Source of the DNA: Calditrichia bacterium
GTDB taxonomy: Bacteria; Calditrichota; Calditrichia; JAJRVZ01
Assembly (NCBI GenBank): GCA_963777955.1
Contig: CAVZSQ010000013.1
Span: 1-64,000 of the forward strand
Length of the DNA: 64,000 bases
Direction: 5' to 3'
In this document: piece by piece, positions 14,641 to 53,769 of the stretch
Numbering within the stretch: the first letter of the stretch is position 1
Layout of the letters: every line of letters begins with the position of its first letter
Notes under the pieces: model-generated
What the model saw: the letters and a program-made list of their open reading frames with translations, nothing else
Database searches by the model: none
Told to the model about the DNA's origin: nothing
Made by a program: the position numbers and the translations under genes

Positions 14641-14670
14641 TGTTATTTAAGCAAACGCACCTGTTACTTA

Positions 14671-15603: not shown

Positions 15604-15885
15604 GGCTTCCCCTTTTTATGATACTTAAATTAAATATTATATATAATTTATATTAATGACGACTTATGGTAGAAAAATATAATTGAATTTGAAATGTGTT
15701 GTTAAATAACAGTAAAATTATACCTAAATTTTTCCGTAAATTCAATGTTTTAAATACATTTAAAGGTATTTGAAACTGTAAAATTTATTGTGATGAATGC
15801 CATAAAAGGTTCTGTAATTTTTTATGGTGTGAAGTTGAAAAGTAGAATCCAAAATTGAAAACGACCGGTCAGTTTATTATTGCCG

Positions 15886-15914
15886 TTGACTAAAACAATT
15901 AAAATTAATAAGAT
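15886..15914 (+). promoter_or_regulatory. Sigma70-type promoter of the SDR operon
   Basis: TTGACT-N17-TAAGAT; GGAGG RBS before ATG 15996. Confidence 0.55.
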
Positions 15915-15995
15915 TTATTACTTTACATACAATTATTCCAGGAAATCATTATACAAACCTGATGCTGACAGTACTCAGGGGAGGTTGAATCCTTA

Positions 15996-16685
15996 ATGAA
16001 AGCAATAATCCTTACTGGGGTATCCGGAGGATTAGGTAAAGCATTTTTTGACATCTTGAAAGATACAGATTATTATCTGGTCTGTCTTTCGAGATCCTTT
16101 ACCGAAGATCAGATTAAACTTGCCGAATCGGGCAATCCCGAGTTAATCAGGATTGATTTAAATGAGACAGCTGAAGTAACACAAAAATTGAGCAGCGCAA
16201 GGTTGCTTAAAAATAGCATACTGACCGGGATAATTTTTATAAATAATGCGGGAACTGTTTCACCGATCGGCAGAATCGGTGCGATGGACGAACAGGACAT
16301 TAAGCGTTCGATAAATATTAATTTTGTAAGTCCTGTAATAATTACAAATTTTTTAGCTGCCGCATGCAGTAAGAATAATATGAAATTTAAAATACTCAAT
16401 ATTAGTACCGGGGCTGCCGATAAGCCTTTTGCCGGATGGTCGATGTACTGTTCGGTAAAATGTGCCACCAGAATGTTTTTTAATGTTGCAGAAAAAGAAC
16501 AGGGGCTGGTAGTAGAAAATGTCGACCCCGGAGTGTTGAATACACGGATGCAGAAAGAGATCAGGAATGCAGCTATATCCGATTTTCCCCTGGTAGATTA
16601 TTTTAAAAATTTAGCTGCAGAAGACAAGTTACAGGAACCTGCACAGGTAGCCTTTAATATATTGAAGAAAAGCGGTTTAATATGA
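15996..16685 (+). CDS. Short-chain dehydrogenase/reductase (YueD/benzil reductase-like)
   Basis: TGVSGGLG, NNAG, ISTGAA, YCSVK, DPGVLNTRMQ. Confidence 0.85.
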   Translation: MKAIILTGVSGGLGKAFFDILKDTDYYLVCLSRSFTEDQIKLAESGNPELIRIDLNETAEVTQKLSSARLLKNSILTGIIFINNAGTVSPIGRIGAMDEQDIKRSININFVSPVIITNFLAAACSKNNMKFKILNISTGAADKPFAGWSMYCSVKCATRMFFNVAEKEQGLVVENVDPGVLNTRMQKEIRNAAISDFPLVDYFKNLAAEDKLQEPAQVAFNILKKSGLI

Positions 16686-30638: not shown

Positions 30639-30711
30639 TCGTAGATCCCCACAAATTCAATTGCAGAATTTTTCGCTATTTCGTAAAATTGATTTTAAAG
30701 AATTTTTAAAT

Positions 30712-33700: not shown

Positions 33701-33716
33701 ATCACAAAATGAATAA
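30712..33716 (+). CDS. dinG: DnaQ-like exonuclease / DinG helicase fusion; frame broken by a 26-nt insert at 32971-32996
   Basis: LDLETTG, HRAIEDA, EAGTGTGKS, DEAH, TSAT; FWEGID, KLPF, QGFGRLIR in ORF 33156..33716. Confidence 0.9.
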
Positions 33717-36846: not shown

Positions 36847-36911
36847 TTCCCAAAACGGATTCAAATATTTCCTTGTCCCAGCCCCTGCAGAGTTATAACT
36901 TCCAGCAGTCT

Positions 36912-38735
36912 ATGAATATCGAAGAAAAATTATCCAATTTGCCGGACAAACCGGGAGTTTACCTGTTTAAAAGTAAAGATGGCAAGGTGCTGTACATCGG
37001 CAAAGCAACGATACTGCGTAACCGCGTCCGTTCCTATTTTCAGAAATCACGGCCGCTTGATCCCCGCTTGCAGGTACTCGTTACCCGGGTCGGAGACCTG
37101 GAATGGATTGTCACCGATTCAGATGTGGAAGCTTTGATCCTGGAAGCCAATCTGATTAAAAAACATAAACCGCGTTATAATATTAATCTGAAGGACGATA
37201 AAAGTTACCCTTATATCCGTATTACGGCGGAAGATTTTCCGCAGGTATTCCCTACCCGCCGCATCATCCGTGACGGTTCTGCCTATTTCGGACCCTATAC
37301 TAATGTGCGCGATATGCGTGAAGCCTTGACCACCCTGAAACGTTTGTTTGCAATTCGTACCTGTAAATATGACCTTAGTGCCGAAGTGATCGCCAAAAAG
37401 AAGGTACAACTCTGCCTGCAATACTATATTAAGAGATGCCTGGGGCCCTGCCAGGGCCTGCAGGAAAAAGAAGATTATACCCGCATGATCGAAAAGGTCA
37501 GGCAGTTCCTGAAGGGCAAGACCAATCAGATTCTTTCTGAACTCCGGCAGGAGATGTCCGGCCTGGCTGAGCAGCAGAAATATGAAGAAGCAGCCCACCT
37601 TCGTGATAAAATTGAACTCCTGGAAAAGTACCGGAATGCCCAGAAAGTGGTATTGAGCGATCCCTGGGATCGTGATGTATTTGCCGTCATCCGGGAGGAC
37701 GACGATGCCTGTGCGGTCATTTTCAAGATCCGTGAAGGAAAAATTATCAGCCGGGCTCATTATTACCTGAACGGTGTTTTGCATAAAGAGTATGCTGAAG
37801 TCCTGGAACACTTTATCAACCAGTATTACAGTAATACCCAGGAGATCCCGCAGGAGATATTTGTGCCGAAGGATTTATCTGAACCTGAAGTTATTGCTGC
37901 CTGGCTAAGCAATCGCAGTAATCAGCCTGTGAAAATAATTGTACCCAGGTCGGGCGAAAAGAAAAAACTGATTGAAATGTGCGAAAAGAATGCCCATTAT
38001 TTGCTGGAAGAATTAAAACTGCAAAAATTGAAGGTTAAAGAGTCGGTACCGTATGTACTACAGGCGCTGCAACGGGATTTAAGTCTGACCAAATCCCCCC
38101 GGCGCATCGAATGCTTTGACATTTCCAATATCCAGGGCAGCGATCCTGTCGCCTCGATGGTCTGTTTTATTGATGGCAAGCCGCACAAAAGTGAATATCG
38201 AAAGTATAAAATTAATATACAGGAAACACCGGATGATTTTGCCATGATGCGCGAAGTGATTAAACGCCGTTACAGCAGGGTTTTGCAGGAAAAAAAGGAA
38301 TTACCGGATCTGATCATGGTTGATGGCGGCAAGGGACAGTTATCCAGCGCCCTGTCGGTATTGAATGAACTCAAATTACGGGAACAGCCGGTGATCGGTC
38401 TGGCCAAGAAACTGGAAGAGATATTCAGGCCGGGATGCAGCGAGGCCCAGATGCTGCCCAAAACATCGGCCAGTTTAAAATTATTGCAAAAGATCCGCGA
38501 TGAAGCACACCGTTTTGCCGTCACCTTTCACCGGCAGAGACGTAGTAGACGCACTCTGACCTCGGAGTTGGATCAGATCCCGGGAATCGGCCCAAAACGC
38601 CGCAATCAATTGCTGAAAATTTTTGGATCGGTGGTAGATTTAAAAGCAGCACCGCTGGAACTGATCAGGGTAAAAGGAAAAATATCAGCAGTACTGGCCA
38701 GAAAAATTCATAAATTTTTGCACCCTGAACGCTAG
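36912..38735 (+). CDS. uvrC: Excinuclease ABC subunit C
   Basis: GIY-YIG PGVYLF...YIGKA, LKDDKSYPY, IECFDISN, DGGKGQ, RDEAHRFA, HhH IPGIGPKR. Confidence 0.97.
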   Translation: MNIEEKLSNLPDKPGVYLFKSKDGKVLYIGKATILRNRVRSYFQKSRPLDPRLQVLVTRVGDLEWIVTDSDVEALILEANLIKKHKPRYNINLKDDKSYPYIRITAEDFPQVFPTRRIIRDGSAYFGPYTNVRDMREALTTLKRLFAIRTCKYDLSAEVIAKKKVQLCLQYYIKRCLGPCQGLQEKEDYTRMIEKVRQFLKGKTNQILSELRQEMSGLAEQQKYEEAAHLRDKIELLEKYRNAQKVVLSDPWDRDVFAVIREDDDACAVIFKIREGKIISRAHYYLNGVLHKEYAEVLEHFINQYYSNTQEIPQEIFVPKDLSEPEVIAAWLSNRSNQPVKIIVPRSGEKKKLIEMCEKNAHYLLEELKLQKLKVKESVPYVLQALQRDLSLTKSPRRIECFDISNIQGSDPVASMVCFIDGKPHKSEYRKYKINIQETPDDFAMMREVIKRRYSRVLQEKKELPDLIMVDGGKGQLSSALSVLNELKLREQPVIGLAKKLEEIFRPGCSEAQMLPKTSASLKLLQKIRDEAHRFAVTFHRQRRSRRTLTSELDQIPGIGPKRRNQLLKIFGSVVDLKAAPLELIRVKGKISAVLARKIHKFLHPER

Positions 38736-38784: not shown

Positions 38785-38864
38785 TTGACTTTTCAATGAT
38801 TTAGTTTTATGTTTTGATGAAATTAAAAATGCATACCATGTTCAACATGTAATTTTTCTTGCAT
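38785..38864 (+). promoter_or_regulatory. Sigma70 promoter plus two imperfect palindromic boxes (candidate RpiR operators)
   Basis: TTGACT-N17-TATGTT (38785-38813); ATGAAATTAAAAATGCAT (38817-38834) and ATGTAATTTTTCTTGCAT (38847-38864). Confidence 0.55.
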
Positions 38865-38869
38865 TGGCT

Positions 38870-39733
38870 ATGCCCATCCAAAAAGAAATTGAAAAACGGA
38901 TCTATCAGAATTTACCCCGGCTGGCTCACAATCAGAAAAAGATCGCTGATTTCTTCCTGGAACACATCGATTGGGTAGCGCTGCTGCCCATTAAGGATAT
39001 TGCCCACAGAGTCGGGGTCAGTGAAGCTTCGATCGTCCGCTTCAGCCAGATCCTCGGTTATAAGGGTTACAAAGAACTAAAACAGGCATTATCAATTGCT
39101 TTAAAAAACCAGTTATCCCCCACCCAGCGCTATCATTATGCCATCAGCGAAAAGGAAAAAATCCACAATACCCTCAAACTGGCCAGCGATAATGTCATTA
39201 ACAATATCCACGATACGATCAAATCCCTGGACAAGGAAGTTTTTTCCCAGATCGTGGACAGGATCAGCGCTGCCCACCGCATCTATTGCTTTGGACTCGA
39301 AATATCGGCCCATCTTTCCCAACTGATGACCTTCTTATTACGACTTTACAGTTACGATGCACAATATTTATCCATGGATTTTTTCCGTTACCAGGAACAG
39401 ATTGGCTATTTAAATAAAAAAGACCTGGTGATCGCTTTCAGTTTTTCCCCTTATTCGCGGGAAACCATCGAAGCCCTGGCCCTGGCTAAAAAACGTGGTA
39501 TAAAAAGCATCGCATTTACGGATAAGAAAACAGCGCCGATACGTCAATTTGCCAGTTACTGCATCCAGATCAAAACCGATAATATCATGTTCAGTAATTC
39601 ACTGGGTGCCGTGGTTACCGTGATTAATGCCATCATCAACGAACTCAATTTTAAAGACCAGAAACGAACCCTGCATGCCCTGGAGGTGATTGAGGAAAGC
39701 ATCAAGGATGATCGCTATTTCATAAATGCGTGA
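38870..39733 (+). CDS. RpiR/MurR-family transcriptional regulator (HTH + SIS)
   Basis: KKIADFFL...VSEASIVRFSQILGYKGYKELK; SIS domain with FSFSPYSRET, AFTD. Confidence 0.92.
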   Translation: MPIQKEIEKRIYQNLPRLAHNQKKIADFFLEHIDWVALLPIKDIAHRVGVSEASIVRFSQILGYKGYKELKQALSIALKNQLSPTQRYHYAISEKEKIHNTLKLASDNVINNIHDTIKSLDKEVFSQIVDRISAAHRIYCFGLEISAHLSQLMTFLLRLYSYDAQYLSMDFFRYQEQIGYLNKKDLVIAFSFSPYSRETIEALALAKKRGIKSIAFTDKKTAPIRQFASYCIQIKTDNIMFSNSLGAVVTVINAIINELNFKDQKRTLHALEVIEESIKDDRYFINA

Positions 39734-39791
39734 GAATAAATCAAACCGGATCGCATTCCGAATCACATCAATCAAGGAATTGCTATAAAGA

Positions 39792-40907
39792 ATGAATCAA
39801 CAAAGGTTACAAGATCTGTTCCTGCAGTTGGCTAAAATAGACGGGGTATCTTTACATGAACGGGCGGTGGCCGATTTCATTATACAAAAACTAAGTCTGT
39901 TAAATCTGGAAGTGGCCGAAGACAATGCTGCCAAACGGTTGAAGGGTAACTGCGGCAACCTGATCGTCCGTATCGACGCTGATCGCGATCAACGGGAACC
40001 GTTGCTGCTTCTGGCTCATCTGGATACGGTTAAATCAACCGGGAACCTTACACCACGGATCAGCGATGGTGTGCTGCACTCGGATGGCTCCACCATCCTG
40101 GGTGCCGATAACCGGGCGGGCCTGACCCTGATTATGGGTCTGCTGGAGGAAATTTCACTACAAAAGTACAAGCACCGAAATCTTGAAATTATATTTACGG
40201 TCGCCGAAGAATTGGGTATGCTCGGCGCACTGGCCCTGGATTTTTCGCAGCTGCGCTCCAGAGAAGGTTTCGTCTTTGACTGCACGGCAGTACCGGGCGG
40301 GTATGTGACTGCAACCCCCACGGCTATCGATTTTAAAATCAACTTTACCGGCCGGGCCGCACATTCTGCTGTGGCACCGGAAAAAGGGATCAATGCCCTG
40401 TCGATGGCCTTGCAGGTCTGTAATAAATTTCCGGTGGGCCGGGTCAATGAACATACCGTGGCTAATATCGGTACCATTCATGGCGGTTCAGCGGATAACG
40501 TTGTTCCGGAGCAGGTTTCGGTCACGGGTGAATTCCGTTCGTTTCGGGCAGAAGAAATTAATACAATTGAAAAAACTCTGAAAGCGGATTGCCAGGACGC
40601 TGAAACTAAGTGGGGCGGCCGTTGCGAACTGTCATTTGCCACAAGTTTTTGCGGTTTTCACTTCGAACCGGAAATGTCAATCGTCAAACATTTAAATAAC
40701 GTATATAAAAAAACAGGGGTCACGGTCAATCCAATGATCTATTATGGCGGAAGCGATGCCAATGTTTTCAATGCCAATGGTATTAAAATCATTAACCTGG
40801 GAATCGGAGCGAACAATCCTCATTCCAATCAGGAACATATTGCCCTGGCCGATATGCTGAAAGGATATGAAATTATGATGCATTTGATCGAAGCGGAGAA
40901 ATTATGA
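39792..40907 (+). CDS. M20 metallopeptidase (peptidase T-like), no signal peptide
   Basis: AHLDTV, ILGADNRAG, AEELG, GRAAHS...PEKGINA, GGSDAN, HSNQE. Confidence 0.9.
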   Translation: MNQQRLQDLFLQLAKIDGVSLHERAVADFIIQKLSLLNLEVAEDNAAKRLKGNCGNLIVRIDADRDQREPLLLLAHLDTVKSTGNLTPRISDGVLHSDGSTILGADNRAGLTLIMGLLEEISLQKYKHRNLEIIFTVAEELGMLGALALDFSQLRSREGFVFDCTAVPGGYVTATPTAIDFKINFTGRAAHSAVAPEKGINALSMALQVCNKFPVGRVNEHTVANIGTIHGGSADNVVPEQVSVTGEFRSFRAEEINTIEKTLKADCQDAETKWGGRCELSFATSFCGFHFEPEMSIVKHLNNVYKKTGVTVNPMIYYGGSDANVFNANGIKIINLGIGANNPHSNQEHIALADMLKGYEIMMHLIEAEKL

Positions 40908-41755
40908 AGCGACTTATCGCTATGTATATTCTGGCTTTTTGCCTGACCTGGAGTTGTACTCCACCGGCAGGGACGGCGGGTAAAGGATATCTATTGATCA
41001 TCGGCGGTGGTGATAAACCGGCGCCGGCTTTGCGGGAATTTGTAACCTTGAGTGCTGACAAACCTATCCTGGTAATTACTTCCGCCAGTGAAGTTCCCCA
41101 GGAGAGCGGGCCGGAAACAGTACAGATGCTGCGTGATGCAGGTGCACGAATGATCAACTGGACCCATATCGATAGCCCGGCCATGGCCAATACGGATAGC
41201 GTGGTAGCCATGATTGCAGCAGCGGGCGGAATATTTTTTAGCGGGGGTGTTCAGGAACGGCTGATGAATCGATTAAACAATTCGCGTTCGGCGGCTGAAA
41301 TTTTAAATCTTTATTTCAAAAAAGGGGGCATTATCGGCGGGACCAGCGCAGGTGCTGCCGTGATGAGCCGGGTCATGATCACCGGTAATGAACTGATTAA
41401 CCGGGATACAACCAATATCTTCGTCACCATCCAGAAGAATAATGTCGAGACCAAACAAGGTTTTGGATTCCTGGATAAAGTGATCATCGATCAGCATTTT
41501 GTGGCCCGCAAACGCCACAACCGCTTGATCAGCCAGATTCTGGAACATCCGGAATTACTGGGTATCGGTATCGACGAAGATACCGCCATCCTGGTATATC
41601 CCGACGGTAAATCCCGTGTCTACGGCACGGGTCCTGTACTCATCTATAATGCCCGTAAAGCCAAAGCAATTCGAACCAATGATCAAGGAATGCTGGCAGC
41701 CCGGAATATTAAAATCGACATCCTGCTGGCTGGTGAAGAGTTTATTATAGAATAA
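40904..41755 (+). CDS. cphB: Cyanophycinase (peptidase S51), predicted lipoprotein
   Basis: LLIIGGG, FFSGGVQ, GGTSAGAA (Ser), IIDQHF..RKRHNRL (His), GIGIDEDTA (Glu); signal MKRLIAMYILAFCLTWS-C. Confidence 0.85.
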   Translation: MKRLIAMYILAFCLTWSCTPPAGTAGKGYLLIIGGGDKPAPALREFVTLSADKPILVITSASEVPQESGPETVQMLRDAGARMINWTHIDSPAMANTDSVVAMIAAAGGIFFSGGVQERLMNRLNNSRSAAEILNLYFKKGGIIGGTSAGAAVMSRVMITGNELINRDTTNIFVTIQKNNVETKQGFGFLDKVIIDQHFVARKRHNRLISQILEHPELLGIGIDEDTAILVYPDGKSRVYGTGPVLIYNARKAKAIRTNDQGMLAARNIKIDILLAGEEFIIE

Positions 41756-41792
41756 TGGTTTAAGGAATCCGGCAATCCAATAGTTAAAACTT

Positions 41793-43184
41793 ATGAAAAC
41801 TAAATTTTCCCTGAATACCCTGGTCATGATTTATGCAATCGTGGTCGTGGTCGCAGTATTAACCTGGCTTATTCCGGGCGGGGAATATCAGCGTGAAATG
41901 AAAGAAGGCCGCACCCTGGTCATCCCCGGCTCTTTTCAATACACCCAGAGTGAACCTCAGGGGCTGGGTGCTGTGCTGATGGCACCCATCAAAGGATTTA
42001 TCCAGGCTGCCCAGATCATAGCCTTTCTATTGATCATCGGCGGTGTCTTCAGCACCATGCAGAGAACCGGTGCGATCACCGCTGCCGTCAAAAAAATGGC
42101 AATTGTTTTCAGTAACCGGCAGCAGCTGCAAAAATATTTCATTCCGGTAACCATGTTCATCTTCTCTCTGGGGGGTACACTTTTCGGCATGTGCGAAGAA
42201 ACCATGCCGTTTATTCCGATATTCATACCGCTGGCGATTTCGCTTGGTTATGATTCGCTGGTCGGTACTGCCATACCATTTTTAGGGGCCGCGGCTGGAT
42301 TTGCCGGTGCAGTTTTCAATCCCTTTACCGTCGGTATTGCCCAGGGCATAGCCGAACTACCCCTTTATTCGGGCATGTCCTACCGCCTGCTGGTCTGGGT
42401 CCTCAGCACATTCTTCATGATTTATTTCGTAATGCGCTACGCAGCAAAAATCAAGGCGAATCCGACACTCAGTCCGGTTTATGAAATCGATCAGCAGCGT
42501 AAACATGATCTGCATTTAAATACGGCTAACCAGGAAGCATTCTCATTACGGCATAAATTGGTCTTAAGCGCCTTTGTGCTGGCAATTATTTTATTGATCT
42601 ATGGAGTTCTGAAATTCGAGTGGTATATTAATGAAATCGCCGCTTTATTCCTGGGTCTGGGAATTGTCAGCGGCCTGCTGGGGCGTTTATCCGTTACCGA
42701 GCTTACCGAAAGTTTTAAAAACGGCGCTAAAGACATGATCGGCGTGGCATTCATCATTGCCTGCGCCCGGGCTATCTTAGTAGTCGCCAGCGATGGCCAG
42801 ATTATGGATGTGATGTTATATAATCTGTCCAGCGTCATTTCACATTTTAATCCTATAATTTCTGCGCAGGCTATGTTTGTTACCCAGGGCATCATCAACT
42901 TTTTTGTGCATTCCGGTTCAGGGCAGGCGGCGCTGACCATGCCGGTGATGGCTCCCCTGGCTGATGTAATAGGCATCAGCCGCCAGACTGCCGTGCTGGC
43001 CTTTGTTTTTGGTGAAGGCTGGATCAATCCCATTCTGCCTACCTCGGGGGTCACTATGGGTGTACTGGGCCTGGCCGGGCTTTCCTGGGATAAATGGGCT
43101 AAATGGATGCTGCCCATACAAATTTTCTTTTTTATTCTGGCACTATTACTGTTGATACCGCCGGTAATTTTTAACTGGCAATAA
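41793..43184 (+). CDS. YfcC-family (DcuC-like) transporter, putative basic amino acid/dipeptide carrier
   Basis: LTWLIPGGEY, GMCEE, NPFTVGIAQGIAELPLYSG, SGSGQAALTMPVMAPLAD. Confidence 0.9.
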   Translation: MKTKFSLNTLVMIYAIVVVVAVLTWLIPGGEYQREMKEGRTLVIPGSFQYTQSEPQGLGAVLMAPIKGFIQAAQIIAFLLIIGGVFSTMQRTGAITAAVKKMAIVFSNRQQLQKYFIPVTMFIFSLGGTLFGMCEETMPFIPIFIPLAISLGYDSLVGTAIPFLGAAAGFAGAVFNPFTVGIAQGIAELPLYSGMSYRLLVWVLSTFFMIYFVMRYAAKIKANPTLSPVYEIDQQRKHDLHLNTANQEAFSLRHKLVLSAFVLAIILLIYGVLKFEWYINEIAALFLGLGIVSGLLGRLSVTELTESFKNGAKDMIGVAFIIACARAILVVASDGQIMDVMLYNLSSVISHFNPIISAQAMFVTQGIINFFVHSGSGQAALTMPVMAPLADVIGISRQTAVLAFVFGEGWINPILPTSGVTMGVLGLAGLSWDKWAKWMLPIQIFFFILALLLLIPPVIFNWQ

Positions 43185-43286
43185 GGCGAGATCTTGAAAT
43201 TATTTAAACCGGAAAATTCCAGGCAATTAATTGTTTTATGATTGCATATAATATTAACCAAGTACTATGCTTAAAAGGAGGTAGTC

Positions 43287-44456
43287 ATGAGTACCAGAGT
43301 TACCAAATTATTCATGTGTTTCATTTTATTGAGCATGTTCTTTTTTAGTGAAAGCCAGGCTCAGATTTTTTTTGAAACCGGAAAAATTGGCGTCCGGGTG
43401 AGCAACGCCGGTGCTGTCCGTATATATGCACCATCAACCAATGACAATCAGCAATTGTCCCGGGTGACAATTATCGCTGCCCTCTCCGAACAGGCTGTAT
43501 CTGATTATACTGATGATCATGATGCCGGCGATGTGGCCGCCGCTCTGGTTATTCCGCCGACCCTGGCTGATACAGAAGCTGTAGTAGAATTTAACAGCGA
43601 ATATTCCAGTTTACCACCAAAGGTATATTATCGCCTGCATGTCTATTCCTGGCTTAATGAATCGTACATCATTGCCCGCTTTACGGCAATCAACCAAACC
43701 GGACAGGAGGGTACCTTTTACATCGGCGCTACCACTGTACCACGTATTGCCGGAAGTTATGGCGGAGAAACCAACAGTTACAATATTACCCATAAAACAG
43801 ACTTTTAGTTATCGCGCTGTCGATACCTGCTATGCCGGTTACCGGCTGGTGTCAGCCGAACCCCACTCCTACCATGCTCTGGATTGGACGGTTTATTCTC
43901 CTTAGATCCCAGCAGTGACGTGGCGACCGATTCCACCCGTTATCACATGACTGCTGACGCCGGTTTTGATGCCGAGATGACCGCGGGTGGCGATGGTTCT
44001 ATTCTGAGTTTGAATGCCGGTGCTTTCACCCTGGCCGCCGGCGATTCCGCCGTGGTATATTACGCTATGGCCTTTGCTAAGAGCGAAACTGATCTGATGA
44101 CTGCTACCGATGCCGCACAGGCTAAATATAACGATCTGTTTACTGCGATTGACGACAATGCCGGTCCTGAAATCCTGTCTTCTTTTACACTGCAACAGAA
44201 TTATCCTAATCCATTCAATCCGAGCACTTCAATTCAGTTCAGTCTGAATAATAGCACAGATCTGCAGCTGAACGTTTATAATTTAAGTGGCCAGTTCGTG
44301 AATACAATTGCCGCGGGTACTTACAGTGCGGGATCGCATCTGGCTACCTGGAATGGCCGGGACAGCCGTGGAAATGAAGTAGCCTCGGGCATCTATTTAT
44401 ATCGCCTGATCAGCGCTAATACCAGTTTGACCAAAAAGATGATCCTGGTGCGATAA
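43287..44456 (+). CDS. Secreted protein with C-terminal FlgD-Ig/T9SS-type domain; 2 frameshifts near 43800 and 43900
   Basis: AAGGAGG RBS and signal peptide; fragments 43287..43808, 43639..43905 (3' part), 43884..44456; QNYPNPFNPST...ASGIYLYRL...KKMILVR. Confidence 0.75.
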
Positions 44457-44508
44457 CAGATAGTAACTAACCACCAGTTAATAACCGGTTAAAAATGAGG
44501 TTTACTCA

Positions 44509-46980
44509 ATGAAAACTTTCACCATCATGCTGCTGCTGCTTTTACCAGCGGGCAGCCTGATCGCAGGTGTCACAGGAAAATTAGCCGGAACGATCATAAA
44601 CTCCGAAACCGGTGAAGCGTTGCCCGGAGCAAATATTCAGATTGTAGGCAGCACCCTGGGTGCGGCCGCCGATCTGGATGGACAATTCACTGTGCTGAAT
44701 ATTCCGCCTGGGATTATCGCCGTGAAGGCATCCTATATTAGTTGCGAACCAGTGACTATTACCGACATCCGCATCATGGTTGATTTGACGACCACGCTGA
44801 CGATCAAACTGCAACCCGTTACCGTATCTCTGGGCAAAGAGATTGTGATCGTCGCCGATAAAGCCATGATTCAGAGGGATCTTACCAGCACCAGTGCCGT
44901 AATACGGCGGGATGAACTTGATGATTTGCCGGTTTCGAGTTTTATCGATGTGTTAGCCTTACAGGGCGGTGTAATCGAACAGGGTGGCCGTTTGCATATC
45001 CGGGGCGGTCGCTCGAATGAAATTGCTTTCATGATAGATGGCATGTATGTAAAAGATCCCCTGCTGGGCCGCATGATTACCGAAATCAATAATGATGCTA
45101 TTCAGGAAATGAGTTTGCTCAGCGGAACATTTAATGCAGAATACGGCAACGCCCTGAGTGGAATCGTTAACATAGTCACACGGGATGGCGGAGAGAGTCA
45201 AAATGCCAGCCTGGAGTACCGCAGCAGTTCCTTCGGGATAGACCGTTACTCAGAACTGGGAGAATATCGTCTCAACGGCAGCCTGGGCGGCCCTTTATTT
45301 ACCGAACGGCTGAAATACTTTTTATCCGGCGAGCTGAATAACCGTGATAGTTATCTATCTTTCGGCTATGACCGTAATCTGACCCTGTTTAATAAATTAT
45401 CCTTCGCTTTTTTCCCGGCAGTAAAGATCACCATGTCAAACCGCTATAATCAGATCAAGCACCAGAACTACAGCCATGCTTATAAATATATTCCCGATCA
45501 GTATTACCGCAGCCGGACTAAGAACTGGCAAAGCACCCTGATGCTCACCCACACACTCAATACCAATTTATTTTATGATCTGCGCGTGTCTTATGTTTAC
45601 CAGGATTATTATTCAGGTATTGACAAGGATACCTCAGAATATATCTCGTCAGCCATGTGGGATTATCTCAGTACGGCCGGAAACGGATATGAATTCTGGG
45701 CCCGCGCCGATCCGATGGAACTAATCGAGAGCAGAACTAAAACTGTTGATGCCAAGGGAGACCTGGTCTGGCAGGTCGGACCGATTAATGAAATTAAACT
45801 AGGCCTGCAGTACCGCCAGCACTGGTTGAAGTTATTCAGCGTGTATGATCCCAAAAGAAATTTTCCGTACATCAATGATTACCGGATTGAACCGTTTGAG
45901 GCGGCCGCCTACCTGCAGAATAAAATTGAGTTCCCCTATTTAATTATCAATGTCGGGCTGCGCTTCGACTATTTCAATGCCAACGCCACCTTCCGCAGGG
46001 ATCCGCTCAGTCACGATAAACTGGTAAAAGTGAAGGCGCGCAACCAACTAAGCCCGCGTCTGGGTATCGCTCATCCCGTTTCGGAAAAAACAAAACTGCA
46101 TTTCGCCTACGGTCATTTCTTCCAGAATCCGGAATATCAATATTTATTTGAGAACCAGCAATATGATCTTAATGTACGCGAGCCGCTGTTCGGTCAACCC
46201 AATCTCGATGCTGAACGTACCATTGCTTATGAAGTCGGGATATCCCATCAGTTTTCGGAGCGCATCGCTGCACATCTGACCGCTTATTATAAAGATGTCA
46301 CGGGATTGATCGGTACCAGTTATTACGAGGCTTTTATGGGTAATACCGGCCGCTATGTAGGTTACACCGTGTATATCAATGAAGATTATGCCAACATTAA
46401 GGGATTTGAAATCAATATTGATGTGCGGCCAAGTAAATATTTTTCCGGTGGTCTAAGTTATACCTTGGCCATAGCCAGGGGCAGTGCTTCTTCCGAGGCT
46501 GAACAATATCCCGGTACCGAAGAATCAACCAAGTTATATTACCTGGATTTTGACCAGCGGCACAATCTAAATATTGAAACCATCTTTAAAATTCCGGCTA
46601 ATGAGGGGCCTGTTTTATGGGGCACGAGATTCCTGGCTAATACAGATCTCAGCATGATACTGAGGGCCGGTACCGGATTTCCTTATACACCCAGCGGGCG
46701 TGATATCGGTTTTGTAGAAAAGAATTCCCTGCGCATGCCCGGTCAATATACCCTGGATATGGAGATTGGCAAGACCTTCCAGGCCGGCTCAGGGCTTAAA
46801 CTGAGAATTTTCGCGGAAGTGTTAAATCTGACCGATCACCGGAACGTGATTTATGTATATGGAGATACCGGTGACGCGGAATATACCCTGGTTGGTGGTT
46901 ATTCCCGGGAGTATATGAGAGACCCGTCTAATTTTGGACCGCCCAGATCTGTAAGACTGGGTCTGGGATTCCAATATTAA
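44509..46980 (+). CDS. TonB-dependent receptor with N-terminal carboxypeptidase-regulatory-like domain
   Basis: TGKLAGTI..ETGEALPGANI, plug HIRGGRSNE...IDG, FNAEYGNALSGIVNIVT, SPRLG, C-terminal PRSVRLGLGFQY. Confidence 0.92.
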   Translation: MKTFTIMLLLLLPAGSLIAGVTGKLAGTIINSETGEALPGANIQIVGSTLGAAADLDGQFTVLNIPPGIIAVKASYISCEPVTITDIRIMVDLTTTLTIKLQPVTVSLGKEIVIVADKAMIQRDLTSTSAVIRRDELDDLPVSSFIDVLALQGGVIEQGGRLHIRGGRSNEIAFMIDGMYVKDPLLGRMITEINNDAIQEMSLLSGTFNAEYGNALSGIVNIVTRDGGESQNASLEYRSSSFGIDRYSELGEYRLNGSLGGPLFTERLKYFLSGELNNRDSYLSFGYDRNLTLFNKLSFAFFPAVKITMSNRYNQIKHQNYSHAYKYIPDQYYRSRTKNWQSTLMLTHTLNTNLFYDLRVSYVYQDYYSGIDKDTSEYISSAMWDYLSTAGNGYEFWARADPMELIESRTKTVDAKGDLVWQVGPINEIKLGLQYRQHWLKLFSVYDPKRNFPYINDYRIEPFEAAAYLQNKIEFPYLIINVGLRFDYFNANATFRRDPLSHDKLVKVKARNQLSPRLGIAHPVSEKTKLHFAYGHFFQNPEYQYLFENQQYDLNVREPLFGQPNLDAERTIAYEVGISHQFSERIAAHLTAYYKDVTGLIGTSYYEAFMGNTGRYVGYTVYINEDYANIKGFEINIDVRPSKYFSGGLSYTLAIARGSASSEAEQYPGTEESTKLYYLDFDQRHNLNIETIFKIPANEGPVLWGTRFLANTDLSMILRAGTGFPYTPSGRDIGFVEKNSLRMPGQYTLDMEIGKTFQAGSGLKLRIFAEVLNLTDHRNVIYVYGDTGDAEYTLVGGYSREYMRDPSNFGPPRSVRLGLGFQY

Positions 46981-47035
46981 CAAACCAAGTGATATATCGG
47001 GTAAAGAGATTAATTATGCTGGATGGTGGACAACA

Positions 47036-49841
47036 ATGAGGAATATTTTAAAATTCGTAGCCATTTTGCTGATCCTGTCGAACATTGGATTTGCTCAGAA
47101 CTCATTAAAAGACAAAGAAATAGTCTCAGCAGAATACACCAAGGTTGCAAAACCGGCCGCGGTCGAAGACCGGGCCGGTGGTACACATAATGCCAGTAAT
47201 ATCGGCCTGTTCTTCGAGAACCGCGGTAAACTCTATCCGCGCCGGATTACCCAGGGTCCCTCCGGTGAATTTCCGATCGGCTCGGGAAAAAATTATATCT
47301 ACCGCATTAATCCTTATGTCGGTATCCCCGGTAATGTTATTCAGGGACGATTCACCACCAATGAGGAATGGGAAGCCGTCGGCGGTTTTCAGAACCGCGA
47401 ATATGCCAAGATTGCTTTCAGCGATAATCCCGTTTCATGGAATCCGGACCTCGGTTGGCCGCTCAAGGATGCCGCAGGTAATCCGGTGGTCAAGTCCGAT
47501 CAGGATAGTTATTGTGTATATGATGATGCGAATAATACCGTCACACCTGTCGGTATTACTATTCACCAGACCGGTTATGCCTACGGAGTTAAATTCGCCC
47601 AGAATCTGCTTTTTTATAAATTCGAACTTATTAACAGCAGCAGCACAATCCTGGACAGCCTATATTTCGCCATGTATTGTGATATTGATATCGGTGATGT
47701 GAGCGGAGGACTTCCGGAATACGGGGATGACCGTCTCGATTTCGATAAAGAAAATAATTTCGTTTATTTTTTCGACGACGGACTTTCAGGCGAATGGACC
47801 GGGGGGATTACCGGCTATTTCGGTGTCGCCGTACTTGAAACACCTGCGACGGATGACGGAACTTTCGGTATAACCGATATGCATTATAACCTGTACAATG
47901 ACGATCGTGATGATGACAGTTTACAATTTGCCGTGCTTTCCAGCAATCCCGGTTTAATCAATCCACCTTCGCTGGTACCGAAATATTTTCACACTACGGG
48001 TGATCTTCATTATGATGATCCGGCGACGATTCCAGCTTCCGGTCTGGATTTGACAGCAACGCTTAGTTCAGGTCCTTATCATCTTGAGCAGGGTGATACC
48101 CTTGTTTTCTATACGGTGATCGTGGCCGGTAATAATAAGGAAGACCTGTACAACTCGCTGCAAACCGCTCAAAAAATAAAACAGTATAATTTCGAAATCA
48201 GCAAGCCACCGGCTACACCGACCCTGAGCGCTTATGCCGGCGATGGGTCGTATAACCTTATTCTGGAACGATGTAGCGGAGCGTTCCAAGGATAATTATT
48301 CCGGAGAATATGATTTCGAAGGATACCGGCTATATCGCAGTACCGATAAAGGACTCCATTGGGATCAATGGGATCGCAATGTGGATCCTTCTGTCGGAAT
48401 CGATCCGGTACCGTTGGCCCAATTCGATATCCGCAACAACCTTGGTCTGGATGCCGGACTGCAATATAGTTTTACCGATACGAATGTTTATAATGGATTT
48501 GAATACTGGTATACCCTGACCGCATATGATCGTGGTGACGAATCTACCGGCAGCCTGGAAAGCCCGCGGGGTAAGTCGCCTGATGCACTCAATACCGTTT
48601 CGGTCACGCCGCAATCCAAAGCCACGGGCCGGACCCCTGTTTTATCCGACACCGTCCATCATACCGGGCGGGGGAAATCAAATTATGTACTGAATGTCCA
48701 GCCCATTGATCAGGATTCCCTGGAAGACCGGGAATACCGGGTTCTGTTTTCTTACCAGCAACGCACAATAAAAGGTACCCTGCAGACCAGAATTGTCCCG
48801 GTGATTATCGATTCCGCAAAAACTGCGGCAAAAAATTATGGTGTTGAATTTATCGCCGCCAATTCCTTTAACCTGATCGATCTGGACACAGGCGAGGATA
48901 TTGGCGAGAATCCCCGCAGTTATCGCTCCGGGCTTGCTTATTCAGTTAACGCAGGGATGCGCATCAGGATAGAAGATCCCGATCCCGCAGCCGAACCTCA
49001 GTTTTTACCCAGGGCTGGCGACCAACTTACTCTCAATTATGCCGTTTTTGTCATCCGTGATAATATAGATACGGTTATTGCAGCCCAGCCATTCTTGATC
49101 GAAAAATCCTGTGCTACCGGGGATGGTGTCATATTCAACCTTGAACCTCCGGACATTATACAAAGCGTTTCCCGCATCGGTGGTACCGATATTCTGGATA
49201 TCACTTTTACGGTTGCCGATCAGGCACTGGTCACTAATAATTCCTATTGGATTTCAGTGGTTGGCAATGGTACGGATAATGATGATAATAATTTTGCAAA
49301 ATTGTTCCTGACCAGTCAGAGCGGCGATACCATGGTGTTTGATACTCTTTACAATGCCGATACTTTTGAATTTGCCGGGATCCTGGCCAGGATATCATTT
49401 CCTGATGACTCTCCGCCGGCACCCGGAAATACTTTTATGCTCGATACGGTGGTCCCGGTTGCACCCAATATACTGGATGCTTATCAATTTAAAATCAAGG
49501 GAGCCGTGGTCAGAATAGTTCAATTGCAGGATGAACTGAACCGGATCCGGGTTGTACCCAATCCTTACCTGGTCGCATCGCTCTATGAGCCGGAGTTCGG
49601 GGAATTGCGCCGCGAACCGCTCCGTCAGATACAGTTCATTAATTTACCGCAGGAATGTACCATCTATATCTTCACCATTGCCGGTGACCTGGTTAAGACC
49701 ATTGAACACAATGCACCACTGGGCACCGAGAAATGGGATTTAAGGGCCGCAGGGGGCCGGGAAATAGCATCCGGAGTATATCTATACGTCGTAAAAACCG
49801 TTGATGCTCAATATAAGAACACATTTGCAGTGATTAAATAG
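47036..49841 (+). CDS. Large secreted protein with FN3-like domain and 'VVPNPY...IQFINLP...ASGVYLY' C-terminal domain; frameshift near 48250
   Basis: Fragments 47036..48295 and 48234..49841 join as PPATPTLSAYAGDG/RITLFW; DFEGYRLYRS, NGFEYWYTLTAYD. Confidence 0.75.
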
Positions 49842-49851
49842 GTGACAGGCT

Positions 49852-50851
49852 ATGAAACAAATCTGCATTTTAGTACTGCTCGTTCCGGGGTTGATGACAT
49901 TGCCTTTATGGGCGGAAAATCCCAATCTGGGAACCAGCGGCGCTCAATTTTTAAAGATTCCCATCAGTGCCCGCGCAGCAGCCATGGGGGGAGCCTATAT
50001 TGGTATCTGTCAGGATGCTACGGCGGTTTTTTGGAATCCGGCCGGAATCGTCGGGGTCAAGACAAATTCATTTCACTTCTCCCATTCCAGGTGGTTTGAT
50101 ACCTTCGATGTAAATGCTGCTGCCTATGTCTATAATGCCGGCAATTTTGGAACGTTAGCAGCCAGTGCCCTGGTGCTTAGTGTGGACCAGATGGAAATCA
50201 CCACCGAATACAGTCCGAATGGTACCGGTCAGTTTTTCGACGCCCAGGATCTGGCTTTTGGAGTAAGCTGATGCCAGAAGTCTGACCGACCAGTTTCGTG
50301 TTGGTTTAACCGTACGCTATATTCATCAACGAATCTGGAATGAGACAGCCAGCGGTATTGCTTTTGATATCGGCACACAGTATCAGCTTTCATTCAGGAA
50401 TCTTACCCTGGCTATGAGCATGTCTAATTTCGGCCAGGACATGAGATTTGACGGGCCCGACCTCAGCGTGAATTACGACGCCAATTCTTCATTCCCCAAC
50501 CGGCTGACTTCAACACGCCTGGAGACGGAATCGTATCCATTACCCCTGAACTTTGAATTCGGTATAGCCATAGATATTTTCAATACACCATTCTCCCGCG
50601 GGATTCTGGCTATTGATGCTGTCCATCCCAATGATAACCGTGAACGAATTCATTTTGGCAGTGAGATTTCTTTCTATGACCGGTTATTTCTGCGGGGCGG
50701 ATACCGTTTGAATCATGACGACGAGCAATACAACCTGGGTTGTGGTTTCACTGCTGCACTTGGAACAATACAATTGAGTATTGATTACGCTTATTCACTC
50801 TATAAAATATTACCGGATGTCAACCGCATCTCTTTGGGAGCAAATTTCTGA
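49852..50851 (+). CDS. PorV/PorQ-family (UPF0164) outer-membrane beta-barrel protein; 1-nt insertion near 50270
   Basis: GAQFLKIPISARAAAMG, FWNPAG; removing one G from agcTGATgcc restores GVSYARSLTDQF; C-terminal RISLGANF. Confidence 0.85.
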
Positions 50852-50867
50852 TCCGTGCATAATGAAG

Positions 50868-52570
50868 TTAATATATCGCCCAGGGTTGATAGACGATCAA
50901 ATGTAGATTTTGCCTGGCTGTGATCCGGTAGCAGGCAAAAATATTGCCCTGTTCGGGAACAAGCCGGAATTTCCAGTAACGGATCAGACCATAATCGGAC
51001 TGGGGTTCCAGCAGACAGGAAATCAGATTAGCGGCCGGTTGAGCGCAGTCGATATAAAAATCACCTTTCTTCAGCAACAACTTCATCTTTCTGCTGACCA
51101 GCTCGATTTTTTCCGGAGGCAGATAATCATATTTTGCAGGAATAACCGCACTTACTTCGTAAACTTCTGCCTCTGCTTCACAATCCTGGCTGATGAATGA
51201 AACTCCGATCCCCGATCGCTGTAAGGTCTCGATAACATCCTGATGAGCTGCCGGTATTATATAGCCCAGGGGCCGTGTAACACTTTGTTTCAGCTACAAC
51301 CCGCGGAAACCAGTTTTGAATCATGGTGATTACAATTTTTTGATCGGATGGATACGGGTACGGTGCAAAGTCGGAGTCTGACAGGGTTTCGCCGGCGTTG
51401 CGGTTAACCTTCATGATTCCAGTCAGCACAGAATCAGTGTGTTTAAATTCTTGAATGGTTAAAGCCGGTTGCTGTTCGTCACGGGCATATTCCATTTTCA
51501 AATGCACTCTGGTGGTTTCTGTATACGCTTTTGCCCCGCTAAGCAAATTTTTGCGCAGGGTCGAAACCAGATTTATAATTTCCGGATCATGAGCCGCAAC
51601 AACTTCGGCCATGGCTTTCAGACCTGAATATTGCCAGTGCGTACGTTCTGCCAGTGTGGCCAGGTCATGACGCGATGCACCTTCCTGGATAAAAGAAAGT
51701 GTCTGATAGATACCCATACTGTTACGGGTATCGTTAATATCGCTGGTGCTGTATCTCCGAATCATTTCCCGTCCCGCTGTGTCTTCAGGGCGCAGACCGG
51801 CGCCTGCAGCCGTATTTAAACCCATTTCTTCCTCGACCAGATATTCATGAAAGGTTATGCCTTCCTGTGCGAGTTTTTTACCCACTTCGGCCAGTATACA
51901 CTGCCGTGAAAACTCCTGAAGTTGCGGCTGGATATTGATATTGGATACGCAGCCCAGGGCAATCCGGTAGAAATTATCGCCGCGTTCATGGATATCGAGA
52001 GTGACCTCCGGCATCCAGCTCCTGAAAACCCGGTGAATAGCCTGAACTGCCTGGCTCTCCAGTTTTATATGGTCGCGGTTCAGGTCAAGTCCGAGTTCGT
52101 TTTCACGCCGGTCATAGAAGTTCCCATACGGATTGGCCTGGGGAATAATCAGGAAGTTGAGTTCCGCCAGCAAATATTTTAATTCTCCCAGAGCCAGATC
52201 GCGGATGAATTGCAGGGCCGCCTCTTTGGCCGATTGTTCATTGCCATGTTGCGAAGCGATCAGCAACAGGGTCGGTTTACTCCGGTTCAACTGGGCCGGG
52301 GTTCTGGCACCTTCCTGGCTTAGAATACACAGCAATAATTTCCCTGGCCGGGTAATTATCAACAGCGCTGGTGCGGCCGGCGACCTGTATAGAAATATTC
52401 GGGGCTAAGGCAGCAACCGTACTTAAAAATTGTAAAACATCCTCGTACTGGCTGAAACGGCTGTAGTTATTTTCTTCACCCGGAGTTTTTATAGTTCCGG
52501 TTGAACCGCAGCAGACTGTACAACTGACCAGAATCAACGTGAGTATAACTGTGGCAGATATTCTGTGCAT
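50868..52570 (-). CDS. M14 zinc carboxypeptidase-family protein, probable lipoprotein; 2 frameshifts
   Basis: Signal MHRISATVILTLILVS-C after GGAGG; SQHGNE, NPYG, RREN...DLNRDH, LDIHE; tail LLEPQSDYGL. Confidence 0.8.
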
Positions 52571-52622
52571 AGCGGACCTCCGTTTTAAATGTTTATCTGG
52601 ATTCCGACTGAGCAAGGAACTG

Positions 52623-53769
52623 TTATTTAATTCTTTCCTGATGAATGGTGTATTTTGCTAATAGCTTCGGCAAAATCTTTACACCGCTGCCGCTGCCGGC
52701 AGGAATATCGATGAAACCATTTGAATCAAGCACCACCGGGGGTTCAACAATATCCTCATGAAAATAACGGCTGGTTTCCGAAGTATCGCCGGGCAGGTTA
52801 AAGTTTTTATCGGCCTGCAGATGGATATTAACGGCCCGGCCGATTCCTGTCTCATCCATACCCCCGGACCAGACACCGATATGATGATCTGCGGCAAAGC
52901 GGGCCATGCGCCGTGATTCCAGCAAGCCGCCCACCCTGCCCTGCTTGATATTGAGAATACGACAACTGCCCAGGGCAATCGCCGCGGCAGCATCGTCCAG
53001 ACTATGTATGGATTCATCCAGACAGAGAGGAGTTTTCAGGGCACGCTGCAGGATACTGTGTTGATAAATATCAAAATAGGAAAGCGGCTGTTCGATCATC
53101 ATCAGGTTGAATTTATCCAACTGCTGCAGGCTATCGGCAGCATCGCTCAACTGATAATCACCATTGGCGTCAACCATCAGCATGATATCCGGAAATTTTT
53201 CCCGGACGGCACGCACCCAGGCTATGTCCTGCCCCCGCTTAATCTTCATTTTAATGCGGTGATATTTTTTTCCCCGGGCATCTTCCACTGCAGCGATCAG
53301 CTCGCCGATATTGTTCTGTAGTCCGATACTTACACCGGACATGATTTTCCGGGCCGGGAAACCAAGGAACTGGTGTAAAGGGACATTGTTCTGTTTGGCC
53401 AGCAGATCGATGAGCGCGTTCTCCACGGCAGCTCTTGGCCATACTATTGCCACGAACCTGTTGAAAACGTTTTTCTACTTCTGCCAGGGTAACACCCCCT
53501 TCGATGCCGGGAATTAAAAAATCCTTGATAATATGACGTGCACTGACCGTGGTCTCCGGGCTGTAAAAAGGATCCGGATCGGCCACACATTCACCCCACC
53601 CGGTGCAGTCGCCGGCAGAAATTTTCACTAACAGCGCTTCCTTGACATTCCAGGTGTAAGTGCTGGTGGCAAATGGTTTGACAAACGGTAATCTGACAAT
53701 AATCAAATCTATCCGGTCAGTATTTCCTATTACCGCTTCTGTCTCGGACAGGGTTTCCAATTTATTCAT
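52623..53769 (-). CDS. menC: Enolase-superfamily NSAR/OSBS (N-succinylamino acid racemase / o-succinylbenzoate synthase); frameshift near 53435
   Basis: GWGECVA.PDPFYSPET, SGVSIG, RIKMKIK, MVDAN, IEQPL, CLDESI, NIKQGRVGG, WSGGMDETGIG, PGDTS.TSRYFHEDI. Confidence 0.85.

Follow-up and report, generated by a model that had tools for sequence, protein, structure and literature searches.

A candidate RpiR-controlled locus for cyanophycin scavenging in Calditrichota, with an M20 peptidase as putative isoaspartyl dipeptidase

Genes and features of the locus

We analysed a 64,000-nucleotide stretch of the genome of a Calditrichia bacterium (GenBank assembly GCA_963777955.1, contig CAVZSQ010000013.1, positions 1 to 64,000; hereafter the window), which is the start of contig C13 of a 4.24-Mb genome that is 91.8% complete. 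Between positions 38,785 and 53,769 the window carries ten genes that include a cyanophycinase of peptidase family S51, and this locus is the subject of the present report. Open reading frame (ORF) calling and family scans placed all ten genes at the positions and on the strands given in Table 1. In particular, the plus strand encodes, in order, an RpiR-family regulator, an M20 peptidase, the S51 cyanophycinase, a YfcC-family carrier, a small protein with a C-terminal sorting domain (CTD), a TonB-dependent receptor, a large CTD protein and a PorV-like barrel, and these eight co-directional genes are faced by genes for an M14 carboxypeptidase and an NSAR/OSBS enzyme on the minus strand. An initial annotation of this DNA, made from the letters alone, had described the same arrangement, and had stated that no gene for a glycosidase, for cyanophycin synthetase (cphA), or for the isoaspartyl-cleaving enzymes IadA and IaaA lies within it; both statements were borne out, the latter by the finding of no match to any of these families among the 16 ORFs scanned in the region.

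Table 1 Features of the candidate cyanophycin locus (positions are those of the window)
Feature	Position	Strand	Remarks
Sigma-70-like promoter candidate (TTGACT-17-TATGTT)	38785..38813	+	9/12 matches; adjoins the operators, its sole support
Candidate RpiR operator 1, TG(T/A)AA-N6-TT(A/T)CA-like palindrome	38818..38833	+	Found with a matrix from 24 sites in other genomes
Candidate RpiR operator 2, 30 bp after operator 1	38848..38863	+	Matrix built from sites of other genomes
RpiR/MurR-family regulator (helix-turn-helix and SIS domains)	38870..39733	+	ATG at 38870; ORF finder start TTG at 38864; PF01418 and PF01380
Cytoplasmic M20 PepT-like metallopeptidase, candidate isoaspartyl dipeptidase	39792..40907	+	PF01546; group-specific Arg108
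Exported cyanophycinase (S51), probably a lipoprotein	40904..41755	+	TIGR02069; triad S148/H198/E225; pocket Q117, D196, Q197, R202, R204, R207
YfcC/DcuC-family inner-membrane carrier	41793..43184	+	PF03606, E 1.7e-105; NF008611 388 bits, under the cut-off of 500
Small secreted CTD protein, ~390 aa	43287..44456	+	TIGR04183 CTD; no catalytic family; two compensating indels
TonB-dependent receptor, not of the SusC type	44509..46980	+	Plug and barrel matches; lineage found in cyanophycinase loci
Large secreted protein, candidate SusD-like capture protein	47036..49841	+	934 aa in G043; frameshift 48248; predicted beta-supersandwich, FN3, beta-stalk and C-terminal CTD
PorV/PorQ-family barrel	49852..50851	+	NF033709; frameshift 50268
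Exported M14 zinc carboxypeptidase	50868..52570	-	Length in G043 566 aa; two frameshifts, 51295 and 52332; accessory gene in beta-aspartyl loci
NSAR/OSBS enolase-superfamily enzyme	52623..53769	-	TIGR01928; frameshift 53434; likely menC stand-in

The S51 enzyme points to cyanophycin as the substrate

Grouping of the S51 protein with the PepE peptidases had been named at the outset as an outcome that would speak against a cyanophycin locus. The protein instead scored 165.5 bits against the cyanophycinase model TIGR02069 (cut-off 126.6) and 19 bits against the PepE model NF003642 (cut-off 156), and its three matches in the Protein Data Bank (PDB) were all cyanophycinases. The initial annotation had also described the Ser-His-Glu motifs as intact, and this description could be extended from the triad to the binding pocket. 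The six pocket residues reported for CphB (Gln101, Asp172, Gln173, Arg178, Arg180 and Arg183; PMC3235067) map through the 3en0 alignment onto the S51 residues listed, in the same order, in Table 1, and these pocket residues are at least 90% conserved across 18 aligned homologues, in which the triad is conserved as well. The triad and the pocket are thus common to S51 and the cyanophycinases CphB and CphE (3EN0, 7UQV and 7UQW; TIGR02069). Unlike those enzymes, the S51 protein, which is CphB-sized, has a signal peptide whose last residue is Cys (LTWSC; the lipobox was judged by eye), and it is encoded in a genome that has no match to cphA.

A genome-wide search for cphA, iadA and iaaA, which the initial annotation had proposed, gave a divided answer: cphA and, in this 91.8% complete genome, iadA (TIGR01975) had no match, but an iaaA gene whose product has a lipobox-like N-terminus is present outside the locus, on contig C17 (positions 15392-16435). 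Among 86 Calditrichota genomes, S51 matches were found in 17 and cphA in one; this genome too is without a cphA match, and the distribution fits scavenging of an external polymer. IadA was found in five of the 86, none of which is S51-positive. Taken together, these sequence comparisons make cyanophycin the probable substrate of the locus, and cyanophycin scavenging likely extends to Calditrichota. (Note that in the sole cphA-bearing Calditrichota genome, G053, an M20 gene of the S51-linked group lies beside YfcC on another contig, and the genome has no IadA; loci L043 and L058. Separately, on C17 of the present genome, positions 11995-16435, iaaA is followed by two amidohydrolase genes, one of them split, that by eye are D-aminoacylase-like; this region is possibly an exported beta-aspartyl or D-amino-acid module.)

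The locus is conserved and shares a candidate tandem operator

The locus is conserved in Calditrichota, in Ignavibacteria-related genomes and in metagenomes. Calditrichota loci hold M20, S51, RpiR, YfcC and the triad of TonB receptor, CTD protein and PorV barrel in shuffled order, and many of them add a second, CTD-bearing cyanophycinase, an M14 peptidase and an NhaC carrier. A search seeded with M20 in the phylum of an Ignavibacteriales metagenome-assembled genome (MAG) gave 17 matches in 14 of 301 genomes; 14 of these lie beside a cyanophycinase, two beside a hydrolase resembling poly(aspartic acid) hydrolase-1 (PahZ1), and one beside YfcC and an Ntn hydrolase. (A contig scan seeded with a single protein gave only 7 loci.)

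The palindrome TG(T/A)AA-N6-TT(A/T)CA was found within 100 bp of 15 of 28 M20 starts, compared with 1 of 162 control starts; note that the pattern was first seen in the window and refined on homologues, so that this enrichment is not blind. When the entire 4.24-Mb genome was scanned with a matrix derived from 24 sites in other genomes, a single tandem pair emerged, namely the two operators of Table 1, and tandem spacing of 29-30 bp recurs in L031, L066, L075, L100, L175 and L180. RpiR, which by tblastn is single copy in this genome, is the presumed binder of the tandem palindrome. Promoter-like sites in the region were at chance level (32, against 27.2 in shuffled sequence), as was a terminator scan.

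The genes are therefore linked, and share an operator, in related genomes, where a lack of co-conservation had been foreseen as grounds for abandoning the idea. The earlier proposal of a locus for a nitrogen polymer, comparable to a polysaccharide utilization locus, gains support from the identity of S51, from gene co-conservation and from the common operator.

Two further arrangements were seen. In the Ignavibacteriales locus L048 (12880-17627) the M20-S51-RpiR core is kept, and the triad gives way to a receptor of 1068 aa and a partner of 514 aa with no match in Pfam or NCBIfam; comparable receptor/partner pairs occur close to S51 in two loci from metagenomes (L090 and L144). In addition, uvrC lies upstream of RpiR-M20 both here (window positions 36873-38735) and in a PahZ1-type locus of G067, a genome of another family (L054:9752-14035); the uvrC-flanked site may be an ancestral position or a hotspot.

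The M20 peptidase as a candidate isoaspartyl dipeptidase

Cyanophycinases release beta-Asp-Arg, and the initial annotation had offered either M20 or M14 as a non-canonical hydrolase of its isopeptide bond. M20 emerged as the better candidate and M14 was set aside (see below). The M20 protein is of the same family as the PepT-like peptidases (3GB0 and 3RZA; TIGR01883), to which it aligns at E ~1e-61 with the metal-site motifs in register. It differs from them in that its score against TIGR01883, its best NCBIfam match, is 256.2 bits, below the cut-off of 274.25, in that it has GAD-N-R instead of GAD-D-K together with other fixed differences, and in that it is tied to loci for beta-aspartyl depolymerases. 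Because its alignment to the solved chains starts at residue 1, the protein has no signal peptide.

We surveyed 123 S51-seeded loci for genes within 10 kb of the cyanophycinase. M20 was present in 26 and IadA or IaaA in 19, and no locus had both. By set, M20 was found in 15 and IadA in 6 of the 80 metagenome loci; IadA and/or IaaA in 13 and M20 in none of the 28 Bacteroidales loci; and M20 in 11 and IadA in none of the 15 Calditrichota loci. Two comparisons are more telling than these counts. In the SusC/SusD loci L136 and L139, M20 stands where L050 has IadA, with the YfcC-M14 order unchanged; thus SusC-SusD-M20-S51-YfcC-M14-NSAR in L136 parallels SusC-SusD-S51-YfcC-IadA-M14-NSAR in L050.

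The same exchange is seen beside a second depolymerase. The only two Calditrichota genomes with a top-tier M20 match and no S51 (G020 and G067) carry M20 in a locus with a homologue of PahZ1 (E 4.5e-78 to 6VE6), an enzyme that cuts beta-amide links (PMC13017698). PahZ1-like loci with M20 also occur in two genomes of the second phylum, that of the Ignavibacteriales MAG, and divergent PahZ1-like loci in G048 and G077 have IadA instead of M20. That PahZ1 loci carry either M20 or IadA argues that M20 follows beta-aspartyl chemistry and not only cyanophycin.

E-value tiers proved unsuitable for defining the M20 group, since Firmicutes homologues scored equally, and trees were used instead. With 55 M20 sequences, a branch (FastTree 0.994; IQ-TREE quick run 91) set apart 40 of the S51 type, and for 37 of these 40 a cyanophycinase lies within 6 kb; 12 generic M20s split off at 99. 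(ORFs shorter than 300 aa were left out of the trees, namely the partial G043 gene, the G020 gene split by a stop, and fragments.) Arg108 is found in 40/40 S51-linked and 3/3 PahZ1-linked M20s, whereas the 12 generic ones all have Lys, and the Asp two residues before it is presumably the bridging metal ligand. Moreover, beta-Asp-Arg closely resembles N-succinyl-Arg (PMC9974463), and since the M20 family includes desuccinylases, isoaspartyl chemistry is plausible for it. On the strength of gene context, then, we lean slightly towards M20 being the isopeptidase, that is, the isoaspartyl dipeptidase, of the locus. Its predicted reaction and its cluster position are those of IadA, IaaA and CphZ/AotO (PMC9974463, PMC10206079), but its family is unrelated to theirs, and it would be the fourth.

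The outer-membrane module

The triad by itself is a common, uptake-like cassette of this genome: there are about 27 PorV-family genes, and upstream of 12 of them stand genes for a TonB receptor and a related CTD protein, so that the triad is evidently a general cassette. This abundance raises the prospect that such a cassette merely adjoins a small cyanophycinase operon, an explanation that is largely refuted by what follows. In a tree of 43 receptors, 26 TonB receptors from the loci cluster together (0.999), and outside this cluster fall 10 paralogues of this genome, four receptors of PahZ1-type loci and three others found near S51. Since the receptors in this tree were collected near S51 or M20, the co-occurrence of the large CTD protein is the less biased test: its top-tier domain (E<=3e-47; next best 4e-30) was found in 11 of the 86 Calditrichota genomes, and all 11 are S51-positive. 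The linkage is also kept through gene shuffling in three lineages. By these comparisons the triad copy at the locus is a locus-specific lineage of the generic cassette.

The receptor is not of the SusC type (76.6 bits against TIGR04056, cut-off 368), the locus has no match to the SusD family, and two SusD-type queries had no match in the genome. The adjacent SusC and SusD genes of a SusC/SusD utilization locus are thus not present here. By comparison, of 28 Bacteroidales cyanophycinase loci (in 28 of 401 genomes), 15 have SusC and 13 have SusD.

At E<=1e-20, 871 homologues of the large CTD protein were found. Among the 120 that were listed, all with at least 53% identity, those with a taxon label are mostly from KSB1 or Ignavibacteria, and those with a name are called only 'hypothetical protein'. 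An AlphaFold model of the homologue from the same-genus genome G043 (predicted local distance difference test score 81, predicted template modelling score 0.66) has a beta-supersandwich that matches the N-domain of glucodextranase (Z 18.1, root mean square deviation 3.0, 230 aligned), together with an FN3 domain, a beta-stalk and a CTD resembling that of PorZ (Z 11.9, root mean square deviation 2.5, 89 aligned); shorter versions of the protein, of ~630 aa, are without the middle part. Foldseek with the whole model returned scattered FN3 and sugar-enzyme domains only. A predicted complex of the TonB receptor (residues 118-823) with the N-domain of the large CTD protein (residues 100-390 of the G043 homologue) scored 0.00 and was given no weight in either direction. 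An Atlas model of a homologue of the small CTD protein resembles an unnamed accessory domain of secreted S8 proteases (template modelling scores 0.84-0.94).

The sorting-domain model TIGR04183 is passed by the small CTD protein and matched weakly, at 16 bits, by the large one, and the genome has an SprA homologue. Both CTD proteins are accordingly predicted to be exported as type IX secretion cargo. In Bacteroidota type IX secretion, CTD cargo pairs with a neighbouring barrel. Whether the large CTD protein acts as a SusD-like capture protein is an evenly balanced question.

A proposed pathway and the evidence that bears on it

We favour, on balance, the view that this conserved locus forms an operon, likely under RpiR control, for scavenging cyanophycin made by other microbes, and that M20 splits beta-Asp-Arg in it. 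The CTD proteins would leave the cell by type IX-like export, and the large one, held at the surface by the neighbouring PorV-like barrel, would bind the polymer there, as SusD does. The TonB receptor would import cyanophycin fragments, the envelope cyanophycinase would release beta-Asp-Arg, and YfcC would carry this dipeptide into the cytoplasm, where M20 would split it at the isopeptide bond into Asp and Arg. A product of the pathway may then relieve RpiR repression at the tandem operator. M14 would be an accessory envelope peptidase; NSAR/OSBS travels with it and likely serves also as MenC.

Several observations weigh against parts of this pathway. In the S51 protein, the residue directly before the pocket Gln is Val, compared with Asp in the solved enzymes. 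For the fold of the large CTD protein, the only matches are to domains of sugar enzymes that are non-catalytic, at ~10% identity, and the fold does not indicate a function. The window is without the second, CTD-bearing cyanophycinase and the NhaC carrier of many relatives. The mutual exclusion of M20 and IadA largely follows lineage, and related loci are not independent; many loci lie on short contigs, and 59 of the 80 metagenome loci have neither gene. In L169, M20 lies beside an Ntn hydrolase. The S51-linked M20 group alone is supported at 91, not starred, in an unfinished IQ-TREE run, and unrelated Firmicutes PepT-like enzymes score up to E 1e-71. Finally, the IaaA family (PF01112) was found in 74 of the 86 Calditrichota genomes, and since IaaA is near-universal, and exported-looking here, the isopeptide may instead be cut in the periplasm, so that M20 is not strictly needed.

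This last point leads to the main rival account of the same cyanophycin locus, in which the exported IaaA cuts the isopeptide, arginine is what YfcC imports, and M20, an ordinary alpha-peptidase or deacylase, deals with side products. YfcC is named as a putative basic amino acid antiporter, and among solved structures those nearest to M20 bear the labels peptidase T and tripeptidase, as this account would have it. In the streptococcal arcD-arcT pair, a YfcC-type carrier is likewise combined with an M20 dipeptidase. However, IaaA is within 10 kb of the cyanophycinase in none of the 15 Calditrichota loci, and it has no tandem operator, whereas M20 accompanies two unrelated beta-aspartyl depolymerases and, beside each of them, trades places with IadA. 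We therefore regard cleavage by an exported IaaA as rather unlikely.

Relation to known systems and to sister loci

A cyanophycin utilization locus has been published (Ben Hania et al. 2017, cited in PMC10206079); it comprises cyanophycinases, iadA and a transporter, and its organism is Salinivirga cyanobacteriivorans (PMC12590107). The present locus is best read as a variant of it in which the outer-membrane module and the last enzyme have been replaced. As in that locus, so far as the citing text describes it, S51 is clustered with transporters, here YfcC and the TonB receptor; unlike it, there is no iadA, and M20 takes its place. The Bacteroidales loci that we fetched have a layout of cyanophycinase with SusC/SusD, YfcC and IadA, from which the present locus differs in its triad and in its RpiR with a tandem operator.

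External use of cyanophycin has been proposed from gene context in several cases (PMC3400609, PMC8528874, PMC6243061, PMC12590107), which include a TonB receptor beside a cyanophycinase in Citromicrobium (PMC3400609), secreted cyanophycinases without a synthetase in Ca. Sulfomarinibacter (PMC8528874) and an S51 protein with a Por domain in Balneolaeota (PMC6243061). The available portions of the reports on these three describe no M20, RpiR or PorV-linked module. A search of the literature, mostly open-access, found no M20 isoaspartyl dipeptidase, no Calditrichota cyanophycin locus and no such triad, with the qualification that Ben Hania et al. 2017 may show related variants.

PahZ1 homologues anchor sister loci with a related M20 or IadA. 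The PahZ1/PahZ2 system is described, in the available part of its report, on a synthetic substrate only (PMC13017698), and it is not present in this window or genome. Sister loci of this kind, with NhaC and M20 or IadA, are L054-L055 (G067), L056-L057 (G020), L170 (G302), L172 (G322), L164 (G048) and L166 (G077); several add RpiR, M14 and a TonB triad of their own, and some of the PahZ1 homologues carry a CTD. These loci are a possible natural setting for poly(aspartate) hydrolases. (In L163 of G007 and L168 of G009, M14, an Asp/Glu-racemase-family gene, NhaC and IadA are clustered without a cyanophycinase and adjoin an 867-aa protein with no NCBIfam match.)

The sister loci also bear on the breadth of the substrate. 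Their layout of RpiR, M20 or IadA, M14 and triad is the same as that of the present locus, racemase-family genes recur (NSAR in L050, L136 and L213; the Asp/Glu-racemase family in G007), and the fold of the small CTD protein is common to secreted proteases, all of which would suit a broader pool of beta-aspartyl or D-aspartyl peptides, such as those of aged detrital protein, of which cyanophycin would be one member. However, S51 keeps the full cyanophycin pocket, the TonB receptors of S51 and PahZ1 loci fall into separate groups, and this genome has no PahZ1 match; a broader pool therefore seems improbable, and cyanophycin remains our preferred substrate.

We also put forward, tentatively and as a reading that falls somewhat short of an even chance, a generalization: the M20 group would be a fourth isoaspartyl dipeptidase family, serving in Calditrichota, Ignavibacteria and relatives as the common last step of RpiR-controlled loci for beta-aspartyl polymers, in which the depolymerase is swappable (cyanophycinase or PahZ1) and a type IX-secreted, PorV-displayed capture protein forms part of a triad equivalent to SusC/SusD. 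In roughly one in four cyanophycin-making genomes no known last-step enzyme is present, and a search for such enzymes gave CphZ (PMC9974463). The M20 group would be a further last-step family, with a clear candidate residue, and could be tested with one purified protein. If true, these proposals would add a route for the recycling of stored nitrogen, and the PahZ1 loci would indicate that hydrolases described on synthetic polyaspartate have a natural substrate. The locus moreover gives a substrate handle on the multi-copy TonB-CTD-PorV cassette.

The M14 and NSAR/OSBS genes

M14 was considered as the main isopeptidase and rejected: it is exported, and close homologues (E<=1e-36) occur in 14 of the 86 Calditrichota genomes, of which only seven are S51-positive, three have them at IadA loci, one is the PahZ1 genome G020 and three are other; in several of these genomes M14 lies away from the cyanophycinase locus. 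The protein also differs from CphZ/AotO in being exported and ~566 aa long; none of its four PDB matches at E<=0.1 is labelled CphZ, and its score against the AstE/AspA Pfam model was 20 bits, under the cut-off. M14 is an accessory member of beta-aspartyl loci.

The NSAR/OSBS protein scored 252 bits against TIGR01928 (cut-off 200.65), and its best PDB matches include N-acylamino acid racemases. Its family is found in five of the 86 Calditrichota genomes, compared with 60 for menD. Both in this genome (G000, C22:333397-341485) and in G043, menA directly precedes menE, whereas four of five other fetched genomes have an enolase-family gene after menA and the fifth a 355-aa ORF there. Because the menaquinone cluster of this genus is thus without menC, which relatives keep there, and because the genome has only three enolase-superfamily genes, NSAR/OSBS likely stands in for the missing menC in this genus. 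It also lies beside M14 in the cyanophycinase loci L050, L136 and L213, and it may have a second role in the cyanophycin pathway.

These two genes, along with the RpiR/MurR regulator, had suggested muropeptides or other D-amino-acid peptides as an alternative substrate for the locus. We found no support for such a catabolic locus, in which M14 would be an amidase. The enolase-superfamily enzyme, at 252 bits for NSAR/OSBS, scored 64 bits as an Ala-Glu epimerase; a dipeptide-epimerase-like gene (named by eye) lies elsewhere, on C21; the NSAR/OSBS family is, as noted, rare in the phylum; and the locus has no amidase or amino-sugar gene. Catabolism of muropeptides is accordingly very improbable.

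Frameshifts in the assembled sequence

Five locus genes are split. Single-base insertions relative to G043 account for the five frameshift positions in Table 1, and the compensating indels of the small CTD gene lie near 43800-43890. The coding DNA of the locus (10.0 kb) has five frame-breaking events and that of the flanks (18.9 kb) has nine, an indel density of ~0.5 per kb over the compared DNA. Decay of the locus into pseudogenes was rejected on account of this equality with the flanks, and because, in addition, the large CTD, PorV and M14 genes are intact in G043, the indels are probably assembly errors. (Four sets of DNA contigs from sequencing runs gave pieces only and did not settle the indels.) The SprA gene (C13:142070-148123) and a DinG-like helicase gene, named by eye (window positions 30661-33716), are likewise split by indels.

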